64,000 bases of DNA, taken from contig NC_086097.1 of the NCBI RefSeq assembly GCF_963921235.1, forward strand, positions 96,660,001 through 96,724,000, written 5' to 3'. Within the stretch, counting starts at the first letter, position 1. Each line of letters starts with the position of its first letter. This DNA comes from Mobula hypostoma (lineage: Eukaryota). The position numbers were made by a program, and so were the translations under genes. Below, one piece after another: positions 5,368-64,000 of the stretch. The notes beneath the pieces were generated by a model that worked only from the letters and a program-made list of their open reading frames with translations, was not told the DNA's origin and searched no databases.

Positions 5368-6533
5368 AACAACACATACAAAATGCTGAAGGAAATCAGC
5401 GGGCCAGGCAATATCTATGGAAAAAAGTAGTCAATCGCTGCGGAAAGCAGAAAGTGGGGGGAGGGAAAGATGTGCTTGGTGGTGGGTTCCCGTTGGAGGT
5501 GGTGGAAGTTTTGGAGAATTACATGCTGGACGCGGAGACTGGAGAGGTGGTAGGTGAGGACAAAAGGAACCCTATCCCTGGTAGGGTGGCGGGAGGATGG
5601 GGTAAGAGTAGACGTGTGTGAAATGGAAGAGAATCAGTGGGAGGGACAAATGGACAAGGGAGTCGAGTAGGGAGCGATCTCTGTGGAAAGCAGAAAGTGG
5701 GGGGGGGAGATGATCAGTGGGGATGGACGACTGGACAAGGGATCGCTCCCTATGCGGCTCCTTTGTCCATTCGTCCCTCCCCACTGATCTCCCTCCAGGC
5801 ACTTATCCATTCTTGCAAGCAGAACAAGTGCTACACCTACCCCAACACCACCTCCCCCACTACCATCCAGGGCCCTAAACAATCCTTCCAAGTGGGGCGA
5901 CACTTCACCTGTAAGTCTGTTGGGGTCATTTACTGTGTTTGCTGCTCCTGGTTTGTCCTTCTGTACATTGGTGAGACCCAACGTAGACTGGGAAACTTCT
6001 TTACTGAGCATCTATAGTCTGTCCACCAGAACAAGCAGGATCTCTCAGTAGCCACCCATTTTAATTCCACTTCCCATTTCCATTCCAATATGTCCATCCA
6101 TGGCCTCCTCTACTTCGTGATGAGGCCACACTTAGGTTGGAGGAACAATACCTTGTATTCTATTTGGGTAGCCTCCAACCTGATGGCATGAACACCAATT
6201 TCTCAAACTTCCGGTAATGCCCTCCAACCTGCACCCCCCTACCCACTTCTCCATTTCTCATCCCCTTTCATCCCTCTCATCAATCAACTTCCCAGCTCTT
6301 TATTTCAGCCCTCCTCCTCCAGGTTTCACATATATCCTGGTAGTTCCCTCTCCCCTCCCCCCACCTTTTAAATCTATTCCTCAGCTTCTTTTCTCCAGTC
6401 CTGCTGAAGGGTTGCAGCCCAAAATGTTGACTGTACTTTTTTTTCCATAGATGCTGCCTGGCCTGCTGAGTTCCTCCAGCATTTTGTGTGTGTTGCTTGG
6501 GTTTCCAGGATCTGTAGATTTTCTCTCGTTTGT
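5368..6533 (+). mobile_element. Second Penelope-like insertion with inverted 5' part, nested in the older element
   Basis: + strand GIY-YIG (GVIYCVCCSWFVLLYIGETQRRLG) and terminal repeat at ~6390-6533; inverted segments at ~5368-5735. Confidence 0.8.
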
Positions 6534-9289: not shown

Positions 9290-10745
9290 ATTGTTATGTC
9301 TTGAAATTCAGCTACAAATTGGCAAATAAGAAGTTGTGGCCATCTCTGAAACTTGGCTAAAGGATGGCTGCCATTGGGAGCTGAATGTGCAATGATTTAC
9401 GGTATATCGGAAAGATAGGTTAGTAGGCAGAGGACGTGGTGTGGCTCTGTGTATAAAAAATAATATTAAATCATTGGAAAGAGATGACATAGGATTGGAA
9501 GGTGTAGAGTCTCTATGGGTTGAGTTAAGAAATGGCAAGGGTAAAAGGACCCTAGTGACAGTTGTATACTGGCCTCCAAACAGCAGGCGGGACGTGGATT
9601 ACAAATTACAGCAGCAGATAGAAAAAGCATGGCAGAAAGGCAATGTCATGATAATCGTTGGGAACTTTAACATGATTGGGAAAACCAGGTCAGTACTGGA
9701 CCTCAAGAGAGAGAATATGTAGAATGTCTAAGGGATGGCTTTTTAGAACAGCTTGTTGTTGAGCCCACAAAGGGATCGGCTGTGCTGGATTGGGTGTTGT
9801 GCAATGATCTGGAGGTGATACAAGAGCTTAATGTTAAAGAACCCTTAGGGAACAGTGTTATGATTGAGTTCACATTGATATTTGAGAGGGAAAAAGTAAA
9901 ATCCAATGTGTTGGTATTTCGGTAGGATAAAGGAAATTACAATGGCATGAGAGGGAAACGGGCCGAAGTTGACTGGAAAGGGACATTTGCAGGAAAGACG
10001 GCAGAGCAGCAATGGATGTGAGAAATGAGGGAAGTGCAAGACAAATATATTCCAAATAAGAAGAATTTTCAAAGGGAAGAAGGACACCACCATGGCTGAC
10101 AAGTGAAGTCAGAGCCAAAGTAAAAGCAAAAGAGAGGGCATACAAGGGAACCCAGAGCTAGTGGCAAGATAGAGGATTGGAGAGCTTTTAAAAACTTACA
10201 GAAGGAAACTAAGAGAGTCATTCAGAAAGAAAAAATGAACTATGAGAGGCAGCTGGCAGCTAATATCAAAGAAGATACTAAAAGCTTTTTTAAGTATATT
10301 AAGGGTAAAAGAGAGTTGAGGGTAGATATAGGACCAATACAAAATGACGCTGGCGATACTGTAATGAGAGATGCAGAGACGGCAGATGAACTGAATGCGT
10401 ATTTTGCATCAGTCTTCACAATAGAAGACATCTGCAGTATACCGGACATTCAAGAGTGTCAGGGAAGTGAAGTTTGTGCAGTGAAAATTACGACTGAGAA
10501 GGTGCTCAGACAAATCTCCTGGACCTGACGGAATGCACCCTTGGGTCCTGAAGGAAGTAGCTGAAGAGACTGCAGACGCATTAATGATGATCTTCCAAGA
10601 ATCAATAAGATTCTGGCATTGTACCAGATGACTGGAAAATTCCAAATGTTACTCCACTATTTAAGAAGGGTGGGAGGCAGCAGAAAGGAAACTATAGACC
10701 TGTTAGCCTGATCTACATCAGCTCCTATATCTTATGGTCTTATGT
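9290..10745 (+). mobile_element. CR1-clade LINE ORF2 fragment joined to a CR1 tail
   Basis: Peptides VAISETWL, VESLWVELRNGKG..YWPPNS, TKSFFKYIKGKR, ELNAYFASVFTIED; tail ctcctatatcttatggtcttatg. Confidence 0.9.
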
Positions 10746-12959: not shown

Positions 12960-13940
12960 CATAAGTACATAATATTACTATAAATTACAGAATAAATAGT
13001 GCAAAAGAAAAGGGTTCATGAGATGGATGGGAAGAAGCAGTTTTTGAATCATTGATTGCTGGTCTTGAGGCTCCTGTACCTCCTCCCTGATGGTAGTAAT
13101 GAGAAGAGGGGCATGTCTCAATGGTGAGGGTCACTAATGATGGATGCCATCTTCTCCAGGAACCATCTCTGGAAGATGTCCTTGGTGGTGGGGAAGTTTG
13201 TGTCTGTGACGTAGCAGGCCAAATCTACAACCCTCTGCAGCCAGTCAATGCAATCCTGTACACTGGAGCCTCTGCAATGCAAACAATCAGAATGCTCGCC
13301 ACTTTATATCTATAGTAATTTGCAAGAGTCTTTGGTGACACAGCAAATCTCTTCAACTCTTAATGAAGTTAAACTGCTGGTGTGCCTTCTTCATGATTGC
13401 ATCAATGTGTTGGGCTCAAGATAGATCCTCTGAGATATTGACAGCTAGGAATTTGAAGACACTCACCATTTCCATCACTGACCCTTAATGAGGACCAGTG
13501 CATATTCCCCTGAGTTCCCCTTTCTCGAGCCCACAATTAATTCCTTGGGCTTGCTGATGTTGAGTGTGAGGTTGTTGATGTGACCCTACTCAACCAACCA
13601 CTTTATCTCATTGCTGTACGCCTCCTCATTACTATCTGAAATTTTACAGATAGCAGTAGTATCATCTGCAAATTTATAGATGGTGCTTGAGGTGTGCTTA
13701 ACCATAAAGTCATGAGTGTAGAGAGAGTAGAGCTGTGGCTTAAGCACACATCCTTGAGTTGCATCTTGTCGATATCAGTGAGGAGGAAATATTATCATTG
13801 ATTCCTACTAACTCTGGTCTCCTGATGAGGAAGCTGAGGACCTGGTTTCAGGAGGTAGTACAGTTGCCCAGGTTTAGAAGCTTAGTGATGATGGGACTGA
13901 AGACCAAGCTATAAGCAATAAACAGTATCCTTACATACTT
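12960..13940 (-). mobile_element. Rex1/Babar-type LINE 3' fragment
   Basis: Similar to the other Rex1 copies in the window; YKFADDT-like segment near 13655-13680. Confidence 0.75.
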
Positions 13941-13944
13941 ACAG

Positions 13945-14905
13945 TAAAATATATTAAAAAGTAGTGCAAAAAGTGAGGTAGTTTTCATTGTCCATTCAGA
14001 AATCTGATGGCAGAGGGGACGAAGCTGTTCCTAAAAAAAAAAGAGGGTGTCTTCAGGCTCCTATAACTGTTCCTTGAAGGTAACAATGAAAAAAGAGCAT
14101 GTCCTGGATGCAGAAGGTCCTTAATGATGGACTCCAACTTCTTGAGGCACCGCCTTTCGAAGATATCCTCGATGATGGGGAGGATTGTGCCCAAGATGGG
14201 GCTGGCTAAGTTTATAATCCTCTACAAATGTTTCTGATCCTATACATTGTTGTCTCCATGCCAGAAGGTGATGCAACCATTCAAAATGGTCTCCACAGTA
14301 CATCTACAGAAACTTGCTAGAGTCTTTGGTGACATACCAAATCTCCTCAAAATCCTAATGAAATATAGCCACTGGCGTGCTTTCTTCATTCTGCAGCAAT
14401 ATGATGAGCCCATAATAGATCTTCAGAAACTTAAAGTGGCTCCCTCTTTCCACTGCTGACCTGACAACGAAGACTCGTCTGTGTTCTTCCAATCAGTTCC
14501 TTGGTATTAATAACATTGAGACAAGGTTGTTATTGTGACACCACTGAACCAACCTGTCTATCTCACTCCTCTATGCCTCCTCGTCACCATCTGAGATTTT
14601 GTCAATAGTTGTGTTGCTGCTGAATTTATAGATGGTGTTTGTGCTGTGCCTAGCACACAGTCATGAGTGCAGAGAGAGTAGCGTAGTAGGCTAAGCACAC
14701 CTCCTTGAGGTCTTCCTATATTAACCGTCAGTGAGGAGAGAACGTTATTTCCGATCCACACTTACTGTGGTCTCCTGATGAGGAAAATCAAGGATCCCGT
14801 TGCAGGGGGAGGTACAGAGGCCCAGGTTTTGAAGCTTGTTGATTAGCACTGATGGTGGATGAAGGTGTTGGAATTTGAGCTCTAATTAATAAACAACCTG
14901 ACATA
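13945..14905 (-). mobile_element. Rex1/Babar-type LINE 3' fragment (second adjacent copy)
   Basis: C-terminal peptide IIKDLLHPGHALFSLLPSRNSYRSLKT...FRNSFVPSAIRFLN; G.PQG..LS.L.YSL.THDCV. Confidence 0.82.
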
Positions 14906-15669
14906 GGTAGCAAGGATCCATCTCCACACTTCATTCTGATTCCAACGTATGTCTTCATTCAGTCCATTCAAAGCAGGCAACAAGTACGAGGAGACAATCA
15001 AAAGCTGACAGAGATTCATTTGAATGGCTCAGTTGGCTCAGACTGGGTAGTCAAGCTTGGCACTTGGAATTGATTCCAAAAGAGCGTGGTATCTACTATT
15101 TATAGATCAGAGTCCAACTTGTTTTATTATTTCAGGAAAAATCAGTGTAGACTGTTATTTGTTGCTGTGAATCATTGGAAATCAGTTCTCATTCCACTGA
15201 AGGGTCTTACATCAAAATGTCAATTGTCCATTTCACTCCACAGATGCTGCCTGACCCACTGAGTTTCCTTAAGCATTATTGCCCTAATTCAAAAACCTTT
15301 GAAATTCTCCCAGTCATTTTATCAGTCTACTTAGTATTTTGGAATACTAGTTCTTTCAAAAGAATCCAATATAATCCTTTTAATTTCCAGACAATTCCAT
15401 CTAATGCATATCAATCTCTACGTCAAAAGAAATGTAGTGGTTAATTTTTGACAGCAGTTGTATAGTACTTTGACCTGTTCACTGTGAACTGTGGAGTTAG
15501 AGCACATTTGACAAATACTTCTTACAATCACATGGTCATGAGTTGTTTCTGCTCCCTCCCCCAGTACTTTCTTGGCAACCCTGACGCATTTTAAATAAAT
15601 TAAAGCTGAAGGTGGAAGCAGTGAGAAGCTGATGCCTAGATGATAATTACTTAACGCAGGATATAGTGT

Positions 15670-21697: not shown

Positions 21698-21894
21698 GAA
21701 GTAAAGGGACAGTCAGTGTTTCAGGTCAAGGTCCTGATTCAGAACTGGTGCAGGTCCTGGTGGAAGGCATCAACCATCATCTCTTTAGCTGCATGACCTA
21801 AGGCCTTCCAGCAGTTTGGTTTATTTGCCCCCACCTGATACTGAATATGCTTTTACTTATTAATCAGCAAGCTTTATCACCACCAATTCACTTA

Positions 21895-21917
21895 CTGTAA
21901 AATTTCTATTTCCATAG
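21895..21917 (+). promoter_or_regulatory. Candidate 3' splice site for the BORG-like coding exon (exon would start at 21918)
   Basis: Pyrimidine tract followed by TAG|G, 98 nt before the ATG. Confidence 0.65.
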
Positions 21918-22015
21918 GATCGGGTTACCAGACCACAACTTCTCCAGGATATTCATTATCTTTTTCAAGACCCTTCGTAATAATTAAACTTTTGAAACCT
22001 ACTGGTCGTTACAAA

Positions 22016-22615
22016 ATGTCTGTCAAATCGCCCATCTATCTCAAAACTGTGTTGACTAAAAAGGGCAAGAAGCCAAAACTGCGTGAAGTCCTATCAGCAG
22101 ACATGATCAGCCCACCTCTGGGAGATTTTCACCACAAATTGCACATTGGCAGGAGAGGAGAGGGTGATACGTTTGGAGATCTGTCCTTCCTACAAGGCCA
22201 GGATGACCTTCTGTCCTCCATGAGTACATCGAAAGATCCAAGGGACGTGGCACCCCCTAAACCCCCTCGACTACACCTAGGAGAGCCCAATGACACAACT
22301 GCTGTCAATTCTACACAGGCAACCTCTGAGTCTCCAGATAACCAACCACCAACTCTTTACTCACCCTCCGTACAATACCACCTGCTGGAGGCATCTGAGG
22401 AAGCCCCACCAGATGACAAGCAGATAGATGACAAAGACCAGCAACGAACTGAAGGTGAAGGAGGATGGGAGTGCTCAGCTCAGAGAGGAATGGATGACTC
22501 TCATTCAAGCCCTTCTGAATATATGTTTCAATTTGAATTGGATTTGGGGCCTTCGATACTGGAAGATGTTCTCAAAATAATGGATAATCACAAATCCATA
22601 ACATCGCAGCAGTAA
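22016..22615 (+). CDS. CDC42 effector protein (BORG/CDC42EP2/3-like), 199 aa, single coding exon; probable positional ortholog of C15orf62
   Basis: Intact [13 protein letters not shown]...[31 protein letters not shown] (CRIB, 22106-22150)[11 protein letters not shown], then [10 protein letters not shown] and [20 protein letters not shown] has A at -3. Splice acceptor tttctatttccatAG at 21916-21917 lies ~100 nt upstream, as is typical of BORG genes. Confidence 0.93.
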
Positions 22616-44012: not shown

Positions 44013-44200
44013 AACACACACAAAATGCTGGTGGAACGCAGCAGGCCAGGCAGCATCTTATAGGAAGTAGTACAGTCGACGTTTCGGGCTGAGACCCTTC
44101 GTCAGGACTAACTGAGTGAAGAGATAGAAAGAGATTTGAAAGTGGGAGGGGGAGGGGGAGATCCGAAGTGATAGGAGAAGACAGGAGGGGGAGGTGGAGC
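44013..44200 (-). repeat. Penelope terminal repeat (young) containing an intact hammerhead
   Basis: aacacacacaaaatgctggtggaacgcagcaggccaggcagcatc...cagtcgacgtttcgggctgagacccttcgtcaggact; CpGs retained. Confidence 0.82.
44073..44110 (-). ncRNA. Minimal type-I hammerhead ribozyme, intact core, sense to DNAJC17 pre-mRNA
   Basis: Reverse complement reads UAGUC CUGACGA A GGG-UCUCAG-CCC GAAAC GUC^ GACUG. Confidence 0.78.
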
Positions 44201-52156: not shown

Positions 52157-52538
52157 TTTTAGACAGTCTACCTAGAGCAGGTACCTCAATACACTAGAGA
52201 AGTACAACCAATACAGCCGTTAACAGATCCTCTAAATCCACTGTTTCAGCAAAGTGAACCTATGTCACTGTCTTCTCCCGGGCTATCCTCCCCAGCTGGA
52301 CTCATTCAGTTCTGATGGACTGGCCACTTTGTTTGCAAGCCTGATAACAAACTCCCATTTCCTATCCTGAGCTCTACTAAGGGAAGAGATTACCAGACAG
52401 ACAAAAAAAATTCAAGACAGTTCTCAAAGGTTCCTTGAAGAAGTGTGACAATCTCTGGGGTCTGTGACCACTCAAAACAGAGCAGCATTAGGATAACAAT
52501 GAAAACTGAATCCATACATCAGAAGCACATAAGCCAGT

Positions 52539-52576
52539 TAGTCCTGACGAAGGGTCTCGGCCTGAAACGTCGACTG
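52539..52576 (+). ncRNA. Minimal type-I hammerhead ribozyme (Penelope-associated), intact
   Basis: UAGUC CUGACGA AGG-GUCUCGG-CCU GAAAC GUC^ GACUG: stem I UAGUC/GACUG, full catalytic core, stem II AGG/CCU, loopless palindromic ACGU stem III, GUC cleavage triplet. Confidence 0.8.
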
Positions 52577-52634
52577 TACCTCTTCCTAGAGATGCTGCCT
52601 GGCCTGCTGCGTTCACCAGCAACTTTGATGTGTG
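52541..52634 (+). mobile_element. 94-bp Penelope terminal-repeat insertion with 10-bp TSD, carrying an intact hammerhead
   Basis: aagccagtta at 52531-52540 and 52635-52644. Confidence 0.82.
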
Positions 52635-52769
52635 AAGCCAGTTACCAGTTCACATACCACGAAAGAGATTCAGAAAATTGAAAGTCTGTGGATCTATTTC
52701 TACCCTCAAGCCAATGGGTTGTCTCTTGGACCAGATTTGTGTGAAGCTGGTCACTGAGGGAAAGGAAAA

Positions 52770-53740
52770 CAGTGATACAGTTTTCTTCATCCTTACATAC
52801 CACCCCATGAGCCTCCGCACTCAGCACATCACTCTCTGTAACCTGCAATCTTCAACAGGATCTTACCACAAAACACATCTTTCCCTTCCCCATCCGCTAC
52901 TCTCTCCAGGGATCACTCTCTGCATGACTCACTTGTTCACTTGTCCTTCCCGGTACTTATCCCTGCAAGCAGGAAAAGTGCTACACTTGCCCTACACCTC
53001 CTCTTTCATCACCAGAACAATTTTAGCAGGAGAGGCGACACTTCACCTGCAAGTCTGCTGGGGTCATCTATTGTATCTGATGCACCCAGTGCAGCCTCCT
53101 CTACAATGGGAAGACCTAACGTAGAATGATGGACCACTTCATCGAGCACTTTTGCCCCACCCATGACAAAAAGGTGAGATTTCCCGGTGGCACTTTTAAA
53201 AATTCTACCACACATTCTCATTCCAGCACGCCAGCCCATGGCCTCCTCTGCAGTCACAACGATGCACTCTCAGGTTAGAAGAGCAATACCTCATATTCCA
53301 TCTGGGTAGTCTTCCATCTCATGGCATGAACAATGATTTCTCTAACTTCTAGTAATTTCTTCCTCCTCTCTTTTTCCATTTCCCATTCTGGCTCCCCTAA
53401 AACCTTCTCCTCACTTTTCTCCAGAGACCCCCTTCCCTTTCTCCCATGGTCCACTGTCCTCTCTCATCAGATTCCTTCTTCTTAAGCCCTTTACCTCTTC
53501 TACCCGTCATCTCCCAGCTTCTTACTTCATCCCTCCTTTCCCTCACCTGGTTTCACCCAACACCTGCTCCTCCCTCACTTTCTTATTCTAGCTTTCCCCC
53601 CTTCCCCAGTGCTGATGAAGGGTCTCAGACCAAAATGTCAACTGTTTATTCCTCCGCATAGATGCTAGCTGACGTTCTGAGCTCCTGCAGCATTTTATGT
53701 GTGTTGCTCTGGATTTCCAGCATCTGCAGAATCTTGTGTC
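52770..53740 (+). mobile_element. Penelope-like element 3' part (GIY-YIG region and terminal repeat), decayed
   Basis: Peptide FILTYHPMSLRTQHI; colinear with 5740-6533; decayed hammerhead at ~53607-53644. Confidence 0.8.
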
Positions 53741-54809
53741 CAGACTTGAGCCAAGATGCAAGATTTTAACATACTCAACTACCACCATTTAATAGATACT
53801 GTTCTCTGCGCTGTATATCTCTGGATATCTTCAAGTCGTGGAACACCACATACTCCAAAATGCAAGGATATGATTATAAAAAGAATGGGGAGACCAAACC
53901 TTTGCCTGAGAATTAAGTCAAATTATGCACGTCAAGGAGGTGAATGCTGAAGTCTCTTACTATACAAAGTAAAGGTAAGGAAATGCCTCAAAAGTAAATT
54001 AAACACAGTTGGATGCAGTTCAAAGTCGAGTGCAGCAAATCTTTTTATAAGGGTACTTTCTACCCTCCTCTCTCACAGGTGCTGACAAGGTTGGCATAGG
54101 GGTTTCAGGGGACCTTAATGACAGACAGATGTTGAAAGGCTGTTCAGTTATAAAGCCAGTGACAATATAACCCAGACTGATCTTGTGTTTCCATCTAACA
54201 TTTGCACTTACTTTCTAGGAAGAATCATTTGCTGACCTTGCCCCAGTGCTATCTATTCCTTGGTGCTGCAGTCCAAAGATTGGCCTGGCTCCACTTCAGG
54301 AATATTATTCATACAAGATACATGGGCTTCACAGCCTGAGCTAGTACTTAATTGTCCCATCCTCGAATGCCCTGATTATTACTGACTAAATAAATGCTCA
54401 AACATTCTTGCTCAGATTAACATTCAAAACACTACATTATGAATACCATTGAGTTAACTGGATTTTATTTGTCTTTTTGAAATGTCACCCAGTTTCATTT
54501 GAAATGTCAGCCTAAATGTACCTCAAAGTGACTAATTTCCTTACAATTGCATTCCCCATGATTCCCTCAAACTACTTTCCACACATTCCCATCACCCACA
54601 TGCATTTTAAAGTGCAATTTACCATGGGCAATTAACCTACCAACTCACATCTTTGGGATGTGGGAGGAAACAAGAGCACCCAGGAGAAAACCATATGGTC
54701 ACAGTTAAACGTAACAACTGCACTTACGTGCAAATTCTAAATTTTAGGCAGGAAACCAAGTGATATGAATTTAATAGCTTTCAGCAGTTTGACCTGCTTT
54801 TGCACTTAC

Positions 54810-62487: not shown

Positions 62488-64000
62488 GAATCAGAATCAG
62501 AATCAGGTTTAATATCACCGGCATATGTCATGAAATTAGTTGTCTTTCAGCAGCAGAACATTGCAATATATAGTAATAAAAACTATACATTACAATAAGA
62601 ACATATAAAAAATAAATTAAATTAGCGCAAAAAGAGAGGGAAAAAGGTACTGAGAAAGTCTTCGTGGGTTCATTATCTATTGAGAAATCTGATGGCGGAG
62701 GGGAAGAAGCTGTTTCTGAAATATTGAGTGTCTCTCTTCAGGTTCGTGTACCTCCTCCTTGAAGGGAGCAATAAAAAAAATAGCATGCCCTGGGTGATGG
62801 AGCTCCTTAATGATAGATGCCACCTTTCAGCATCTTTTTCCCATCCTACACAGTGGTTCCTCCATACCAGGCAGCGATGCAATAGTGATGCTAATGGTAA
62901 TGCACTAGTTAGAACGCTCTGCATGGTACATCTGTTGGTGGTATACCAATACTCCTCAAACTCCTAATGAAATATAGTCATTGTCATGCCTTCTTTGTAA
63001 TTGCATAAATAAGTTCAGCCCAGGATAGGTCCTTAGAGATGTTGACAGCTAGGAACTTGAAACTGCTCTTTCTTTCCACTTTTGATCCACCTATGAGGAT
63101 TGGTGTGTTCCTTTGACTTACATTTTTCCTGAAGTCCACAATCAATTCCTCAGTGTTACTGAGGCTGAGTGAAAGGTTATTGCTGCAACACCACTCATCT
63201 AACTGATCTATCTCAATCCTGTACACCTTCTCGTCACATCTGAAATTCTGCTAATAGTTGTGTCGTCAGCAAACTTACAGATGCCGTTTGAACTGTACCT
63301 AGCCATACAGTCATGGGCATAGAAGAGTTTAGCAGTGGGGTAAGCTTACATCCTTGAGGTGCACCAGTGTTGATTGCCAGCAAGGAGGAGATGTTATTTC
63401 TGAACCACACAGACTATGGTCTCTGGTGAGGAAGTCAAGGATCCAGTTGCAGAGGGAGGTAGAGAGGCCCAGGTATTGGTGCTTGTTGATTGTAACTGAG
63501 GGTATGATTATGTTGAACGGTGGAGCTGTAATCAATAAACAGCAGTCTGACATACGTATTACTATTGTCCAGGTGATCCAAGGTTTAGTTGAGAGCCAGT
63601 GAGGTTATACCCGCTGTACACTTATCGTGATGATAGGCAAATTGCAGCAGGACCAGGTCCTTGCTTAGGCAGGAGTTGATTCTAGCCACGACCAACCTCT
63701 CAAAATACTTCATCACAATGGATGTGAGCGGCATTGGGCGACAGTAATCAAGGCAGCTCACCCAGCTCTTGAGCACTGGAATGATTGTCACCCTTTGGAA
63801 GCAGGTGGGAACCTCTGACTGCAGCACTGAAAGATTGAAGATGCCCTTCAACACTTCTGCCAGTTGGTTAGCACAGGTTTTCAGTGTACCTGGAAGGACT
63901 CTATCAGGGCCTGATGCCATGCAACAGTTCACCCTCTTGAAAGGCAAGGTTTCTGACATCGGCCTCTGAGACAGAGATCACATAGTCATCAGACGCTGCA
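62488..64000 (-). mobile_element. Rex1/Babar-type LINE (RT to 3' tail), runs off the window edge
   Basis: (GAATCA)3 tail; peptides ASGPDRVLPGTLKTCANQLAEVL..IFNLS..VPTCF..IIPV..LTSIVMKYFERLV and FRNSFFPSAIRFLN. Confidence 0.88.

Follow-up and report, generated by a model that had tools for sequence, protein, structure and literature searches.

A Minimal Hammerhead Motif at the End of a Penelope-Like Element: a Lone Insertion, Likely from Uncut RNA and Likely Inactive in Place

HAMMERHEADS IN PENELOPE-LIKE ELEMENTS

The class of minimal hammerheads to which the motif described here belongs, its location in Penelope-like elements (PLEs), and the idea that it acts as a dimer were all published in 2014, and one more copy adds little by itself. 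According to published reports, dimer and trimer constructs of a Schistosoma minimal hammerhead cleave weakly and the monomer does not cleave at all (PMC4209133), the hammerheads of axolotl retrozymes cleave better as dimers (PMC7229834), and eight of nine Xenopus dimer elements showed no cleavage (bioRxiv 10.64898/2026.07.22.740005). The hammerhead of a PLE from the anole is described as cleaving only when the element's protein is present; ribozyme mutants of this element insert normally, and the main template is uncut RNA (PMC11167929). The role of the ribozyme in PLEs is described as an open question (PMC8557442), and it was reported to be dispensable for insertion in vitro (PMC11167929).

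Here, we examine a single copy of such a motif at positions 52539 to 52576 of the window, by which we mean the whole 64-kb stretch of DNA that was analyzed. We are confident that this copy is the end of a PLE that carries a minimal hammerhead and that it is present as a lone 94-bp insert, which likely derives from uncut RNA and is likely inactive in place.

ANATOMY OF THE MOTIF

The earlier note on this DNA had read a hammerhead core, a 5-bp stem I, a GUC triplet, and a loopless ACGU at 52539 to 52576, and this reading was confirmed on the + strand. Its proposed fold stands in these parts (core, stem I, GUC, and palindrome) but places stem II one base out of register, as discussed below. In the register of the family, the parts are as follows.

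52539 to 52576, + strand: minimal type I hammerhead motif of the PLE kind (from the sequence, a strict descriptor set against shuffles, and the consensus in Fig. S3 of PMC4209133)
52539 to 52543, + strand: 5' strand of stem I, the first two bases of which (52539 and 52540) also close the left target-site duplication (microhomology)
52544 to 52551, + strand: core CUGACGA (52544 to 52550) and an unpaired extra A at 52551, between positions 9 and 10.1
52552 to 52563, + strand: stem II in the family register, with 4 bp (G-U, G-C, G-C, and U-G; 52552 to 52555 with 52560 to 52563) and a 4-nt loop
52564 to 52571, + strand: core GAAA (52564 to 52567), the ACGU palindrome (52567 to 52570) that replaces stem III, and the GUC triplet ending in C52571
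52572 to 52576, + strand: 3' strand of stem I

Stem I of this copy comprises five pairs, between 52539 to 52543 and 52572 to 52576, the outermost of which is U-G. All 11 core bases and C17 are present, and, based on hammerhead numbering, the cut is predicted to fall after C52571. A strict descriptor, which demands the core, at least three pairs in each of stems I and II, and complementary 15.2-16.2, has two matches in the 64-kb window: 52539 to 52576 on the + strand and 44105 to 44078 on the minus strand.

THE REPEAT FAMILY AND ITS PARENT ELEMENT

The motif belongs to a repeat of which the earlier note had counted about 15 copies. This count is slightly low; an iterated nhmmer profile finds 22 copies at an E value of <0.01, and 18 of these include the ribozyme part. 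The accompanying claim that this is the most abundant short repeat in the window is borne out by self-BLAST coverage, which peaks at 16, compared to 5 or less on other repeats. Our alignment comprises the 18 copies with the ribozyme part and leaves out the 4 of the 22 that are missing the ribozyme 5' half. All 11 core bases are kept in six of the aligned copies, the ACGU palindrome is kept in five, and both are kept in four; core, palindrome, and both stems are intact together in 2 of the 18, namely, the copies at 52539 and 44110. The copy at 52539 is thus indeed among the best preserved, as had been noted, but the copy at 44110 is equally good and has the consensus G-C pair.

44073 to 44110, minus strand: second intact copy, in which the 10.1-11.1 pair is G-C, as in the consensus (strict descriptor plus per-copy scoring)

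Other copies that are 94 to 95% identical to the 52539 copy exist. No tandem array of the repeat unit is found in the window, and a search of metagenome and viral contigs with the family pattern found nothing. The window holds other dispersed repeats with open reading frame (ORF) remnants, at 9704 to 10705 / 114 to 1123, 13025 to 14909, and 62491 to 63977; we assume that these remnants resemble LINE reverse transcriptases, and the two ORFs of these repeats that were tested have no match in Pfam.

What kind of element left this repeat behind? Based on tblastn with the protein P0001 as the query, the window contains five endonuclease-containing remnants, and downstream of all five, on the same strand, lies a copy of the repeat. 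Because the repeat terminates each of these remnants, we take it to be a PLE 3' terminal repeat. The PLE-type assignment made in the earlier note is upheld both by this position and by the match to the published consensus. The frame at 5718 to 6014 has three matching proteins among 32 candidates, and these are named as ray proteins (Mobula and Hypanus). P0001 carries YIDD as well as a C-x4-C-x2-C linker. A Zn finger-like linker of the CX2-5CxxC type is present in P0001 to P0003; PMC8557442 gives this linker as a feature of the Neptune/Nematis clade. The GIY-YIG match of P0001 is weak (E value of 4.6e-4; 20.9 bits versus a Pfam cutoff of 22.6), Pfam finds no GIY-YIG match in the ORFs of the window themselves, and the PLE remnants in the window are all broken and 36 to 83% identical to P0001. 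Judging from these sequences, the parent is probably a Neptune-type PLE in a ray-like fish.

The 3' ends of 16 copies were read by eye: 7 are short, like that of the 52539 copy, 7 are ~40 nt longer, and 2 are unclear. The longer ends correspond to the optional PLE "tail" of 30 to 40 nt (PMC11167929 and PMC8557442). Both kinds of 3' end occur together at one site in the window, which corresponds to the inverted, 5'-truncated partners described for PLEs (PMC8557442).

32754 to 32998, unstranded: inverted twin insertion between 14-bp direct repeats (read by eye), made up of a short-ended young copy and a young copy with the 40-nt tail

The two copies at this site are joined head to head within the ribozyme 5' half, and their RNA would make a long hairpin.

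Is it possible that the resemblance to a hammerhead is fortuitous? Rfam has no match at the gathering level across the window, and none of its hammerhead families appears at an E value of ≤10 in 52400 to 52800; compared with a canonical type I hammerhead, the motif lacks both the stem III loop and an Rfam hammerhead match. The fold of the monomer has a z score of only −1.24. Covariation across copies, whose absence the earlier note had named as a possible refutation, failed to appear: among the 18 window copies, there is none above chance (the observed score is matched or exceeded in 453 of 500 shuffles), and this holds in either stem II register. The lack of an Rfam match, the z score, and the lack of covariation speak for a chance likeness. 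However, covariation is not to be expected among dead copies that stem from a single master, and its absence therefore does not refute the motif. Moreover, the strict descriptor finds a mean of 0.005 matches per shuffled window (2 of 400 dinucleotide shuffles have a match), and the extra base, G10.1, the palindrome, and the location 3' of an endonuclease all fit the published class. We therefore regard a chance resemblance as extremely improbable.

STEM II REGISTER AND THE G-U SUBFAMILY

The point on which the fold in the earlier note needs correction is its pairing of A52551 with U52563. This pair is possible in 8 of the 18 copies, whereas the 10.1-11.1 pair of the family register (52552 with 52563) is formed in 17 of them (8 G-C, 8 G-U, and 1 A-U) and is unpaired in 1. 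In folding of the 52539 copy, G52552-U52563 has a pair probability of 0.96, versus 0.02 for A52551-U52563. The extra base at the 52551 position is A in 16 of the 18 copies, and the PLE minimal-hammerhead consensus, CUGANGAH, leaves the base that follows position 9 unpaired and places G at 10.1, as drawn in Fig. S3 of PMC4209133. The 10.1-11.1 pair is G-U in the 52539 copy and G-C in the consensus. Several members in that figure (Xenopus 1, Schistosoma 1, and cichlids) also have G-U at this pair, and one row, that of shrimp, is drawn in the register of the earlier note. Given the published G-U members and the shrimp row, the point about the register is a correction and not a defect of the motif.

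Could U52563 be a private decay of a CpG in this one copy? This possibility is ruled out, in that U52563 is common to two copies that are 94 to 95% identical and in that, in organisms A and B, U is far commoner than the 6 to 12% changes at neighboring CpGs. U52563 is a subfamily state. In the contigs of organisms A, B, and D, C at 52563 accounts for 32%, 37%, and 83% of the contig depth, respectively; these shares are biased toward window-like sequence and are comparable between runs, not absolute, and summed contig depth is not equal to copy number. The contig variant tally, which does not count every difference, lists none at 52541 to 52562 or 52600 to 52634, and the shares therefore do not extend to core positions 3 to 9. 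Another subfamily marker, C at 52577, makes up 22%, 21%, and 0.1% in organisms A, B, and D, respectively, and 52589 also varies among the organisms. The differences in subfamily markers point to a burst after organism D split off.

A SOLO INSERTION AND ITS EMPTY SITE

The 52539 copy lies at the left end of a short insertion, and a second remnant lies downstream.

52541 to 52634, + strand: solo insertion of 94 bp, a short-ended PLE terminal piece (target-site duplication and empty site)
52531 to 52540, + strand: left target-site duplication AAGCCAGTTA, 10 bp
52635 to 52644, + strand: right target-site duplication AAGCCAGTTA, 10 bp
52774 to 53743, + strand: older, separate PLE remnant, consisting of an endonuclease region and then a decayed hammerhead copy at ~53607 (tblastn with P0001)

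In a single 802-base contig from a related organism, organism D, 52530 is followed directly by 52635; this joint leaves out 104 bases, with 10 ambiguous letters. With AAGCCAGTTA on both flanks and this empty site in organism D, the insertion is defined as 94 bp, accompanied by a duplication of 10 bp. The final six bases of the duplication are also element sequence (they occur in copy 44110, and family contigs begin matching at 52535), so stem I owes its two outermost bases to microhomology. Organism B likely shares the insertion, although its contig reaches only 22 letters into the insert, which is below the 31-letter criterion; the source run's own contig also ends 19 letters into the insert.

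A different arrangement, in which the 52539 and 53607 copies would be the paired terminal repeats of one element, is ruled out by the insertion's own duplication, by its empty site, and by the identity of 70% between the two copies. The copy at ~53607 has a G12>A change, has lost the palindrome, and has no stem I run.

A PROBABLE UNCUT TEMPLATE AND A PROPOSED MECHANISM

Where did the cDNA of such pieces stop? Five of 16 copies, all 16 chosen for having the core, have their first base 2 to 3 nt ahead of it and thus retain the complete, uncut motif. In the contigs, heterogeneous loose ends accumulate before 52541 (organisms A, B, and D) and before 52542 (organisms A and B). The cDNAs of these pieces extend past the cut site, as uncut RNA would give. 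On the other side, at one copy, near 5437 on the minus strand, the junction between PLE body and terminal repeat falls at C17/G1.1, where the cut is predicted; this is the sole such junction among the 22 repeat matches, and it possibly represents cDNA from cut RNA with a template switch, or else chance.

We propose a model in which the element's protein would nick the target, reverse transcription would begin at either of two internal points, giving rise to the short and the 40-nt-longer 3' ends, and synthesis would halt at the outer edge of helix I. We posit that the motif would serve the active parent element as a working or regulated ribozyme, which would be held as an inactive rod and refolded by the element's protein, by a second copy, or by both. 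Selection would act on the master element and not on the genomic copies, which decay at CpGs.

Alternatively, are the short pieces complete at their 5' ends? That is, the pieces of ~95 and 135 bp might be full copies of an RNA whose 5' end lies at helix I, either at a start site or at the end left by a splice acceptor, and they may re-mobilize as a nonautonomous mini-element. The 5' starts do cluster 2 to 3 nt before the core, but the same clustering is explained if reverse transcriptase halts on reaching a stable hairpin. Upstream, the element has a pyrimidine tract that closes with AG, and the stretch from 52538 to 52544 is covered by what we take to be an initiator-like YYANWYY pattern, which we count in favor of this reading. 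The young subfamily variants, plentiful in organisms A and B but scarce in D, also fit, and in Drosophila, the Penelope intron is reported to end at the 5' edge of helix I (PMC4209133). On the other side, longer copies such as 44110, with the upstream tract and endonuclease, have closely related sequence. We view 5'-complete pieces as rather unlikely.

The same low expectation attaches to a broader version of this idea, which we put forward as speculation. A ray Penelope lineage would yield huge numbers of 94- and 135-bp 5'-complete copies of uncut RNA starting at helix I, the motif would mark the start of the RNA and rest in a built-in off fold instead of cutting the template, the mini-copies may re-mobilize, and a young sub-lineage with G-U in place of G10.1-C11.1 would have been strongly amplified. 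If this were true, the G-U sub-lineage would be a natural experiment: does cleavage matter for the spread of PLEs?

Pyrimidine tracts ending in AG occur just before helix I (in copies 44110, 55866, and 6397 and in loose contig ends) and also at 52578 to 52589, before an ATG at 52592. Both of these tracts, which flank the ribozyme, presumably resemble splice acceptors.

CAN THE LONE COPY CLEAVE?

Returning to the reading that we prefer, a lone piece derived from uncut RNA, we ask whether the 52539 copy could be active where it now sits. The loopless ACGU palindrome led the earlier note to a probable obligate dimer; in its strong form, the idea is of an RNA-only ribozyme, in which this copy would cut once paired with a second one, either within a single transcript or in trans. 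The weak cleavage of Schistosoma dimers and trimers, with none by the monomer (PMC4209133), and the better performance of axolotl retrozymes as dimers (PMC7229834) argue for this idea, and rare head-to-tail motif joints do exist in DNA contigs. In these joints, seen in a few contigs of organisms A, B, and D, 52574 to 52578 leads back to 52540, so the ribozyme core is repeated head to tail with a period of 35 to 40 bases. It is possible that these contigs, which have low depth and rest on loose matching, represent natural dimer constructs elsewhere in the genomes of organisms A, B, and D.

The folding results point the other way. The monomer folds as an inactive rod in which the core GACG pairs with CGUC and the cut site is buried (probability of 0.98). 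For two copies, the double hammerhead has an energy of −11.5 kcal/mol, versus −22.0 kcal/mol for two rods, which are thus favored by ~10 kcal/mol, and −30.3 kcal/mol for a mispaired duplex; since nearest-neighbor energies ignore core and tertiary contacts, these values show difficulty, not impossibility. In the folding, the competing inactive intermolecular duplex is driven by GTCGAC, a 6-base palindrome at 52569 to 52574 that spans the cut site. Within 1.2 kb of native context, the pair probabilities of stem I are 0.05 to 0.19, and the stems are mostly unformed. Nor is a suitable partner close by: in the nearest copy on the same strand, ~1.07 kb away (~53607), core and palindrome are both broken, and copy 44110, the second intact one, is on the opposite strand and 8.4 kb away. 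The reported inactivity of eight of the nine Xenopus dimer elements (bioRxiv 10.64898/2026.07.22.740005) weighs against the obligate dimer as well, as does the protein dependence reported for the anole PLE hammerhead (PMC11167929). We consider an RNA-only obligate dimer improbable here, and the modeled folds and the arrangement of copies make dimer activity unlikely for the lone 52539 copy.

DECAY, RETENTION, AND YOUTH

If selection acts on masters, what should the copies look like? In organism A, the CpGs of the palindrome and of the cut site are changed in 9 to 12% of the contig depth; such changes are 2 to 3 times lower in the presumed-RNA run, where rare variants were probably lost from contigs, and these lower values were set aside. 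That run has no contig over most of the unique flanks of the locus, an absence that says nothing about expression. Core columns are changed at 10 of 135 positions, versus 52 of 389 in the control block (Fisher P value of 0.088; 15 of 18 rows used and 3 dropped); the core is slightly less changed, so neutrality is not strictly established. Compared with nine older-context copies, the 52539 copy has three differences, all of which are compatible with the fold; 16 of 38 transitions would be, which gives a chance of 0.075, and we regard this result as suggestive only. The pattern is one of a motif kept in masters and decaying in copies.

One could also ask whether the host has put this copy to use. 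Co-option as a host regulatory ribozyme might account for its being one of 2 intact copies among 18, and 30 kb upstream there is a CDC42 effector exon in the same orientation. The intactness of the copy is, however, explained by its youth, given that copies 94 to 95% identical to it occur elsewhere and that it is absent in organism D, and the copy folds inactive in its native context. Co-option strikes us as highly improbable. Based on the modeled folds, the lone 52539 copy is likely an inactive relic.

The exon itself, at 21845 to 22615 on the + strand with an ATG near 22019, has intact coding sequence for a CDC42 effector (Borg/CEP), with Pfam matches to BORG_CEP (E value of 1.2e-11) and PBD (E value of 2e-6).

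OUTLOOK AND RELATION TO KNOWN SYSTEMS

Such a family, very abundant and young and with many dated insertions and empty sites, makes a good data set. Where do cDNAs stop relative to the cut site? Do masters retain a cleavable fold? Both questions can be put to it.

How does the family fit with what has been described? Cartilaginous fish are absent from Table S1 and from the compared rows of Fig. S3 of PMC4209133, the 2026 preprint is reported to have surveyed one chondrichthyan genome for tandem retrozymes (bioRxiv 10.64898/2026.07.22.740005), and our literature search, which left most subscription papers outside its scope, found no publication on this ray repeat family.

The closest likeness is to the PLE minimal hammerheads of Cervera and De la Peña (2014; PMC4209133). 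The 52539 motif shares with them the core, the unpaired base after position 9, and G10.1; the repeat likewise has a palindromic 15.2-16.2 without loop III and a short helix I, occurs mostly as solitary copies, and has its position in the 3' terminal repeat, although the 52539 copy itself is a solo piece. Compared with that class, the 52539 motif has a short helix II of 4 bp. PAc, a Poseidon element from the green anole (Frangieh et al. 2024; PMC11167929), likewise has a hammerhead in its terminal repeat, two 3' ends that are one 30- to 40-nt tail apart, and insertions that retain the uncut motif; it belongs to the Penelope/Poseidon clade and has an ORF that begins at stem II, whereas the C-x4-C-x2-C linker of the ray proteins points to Neptune or Nematis. 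Finally, the non-LTR retrozymes (PMC7229834 and bioRxiv 10.64898/2026.07.22.740005) share the type I topology, the dimer logic, and a PLE-related origin. Retrozymes, however, are tandem repeats with canonical contacts between loop 1 and loop 2 and a stem III of 1 to 2 bp, whereas the 52539 repeat is dispersed, with no tandem array in the window and no stem III.
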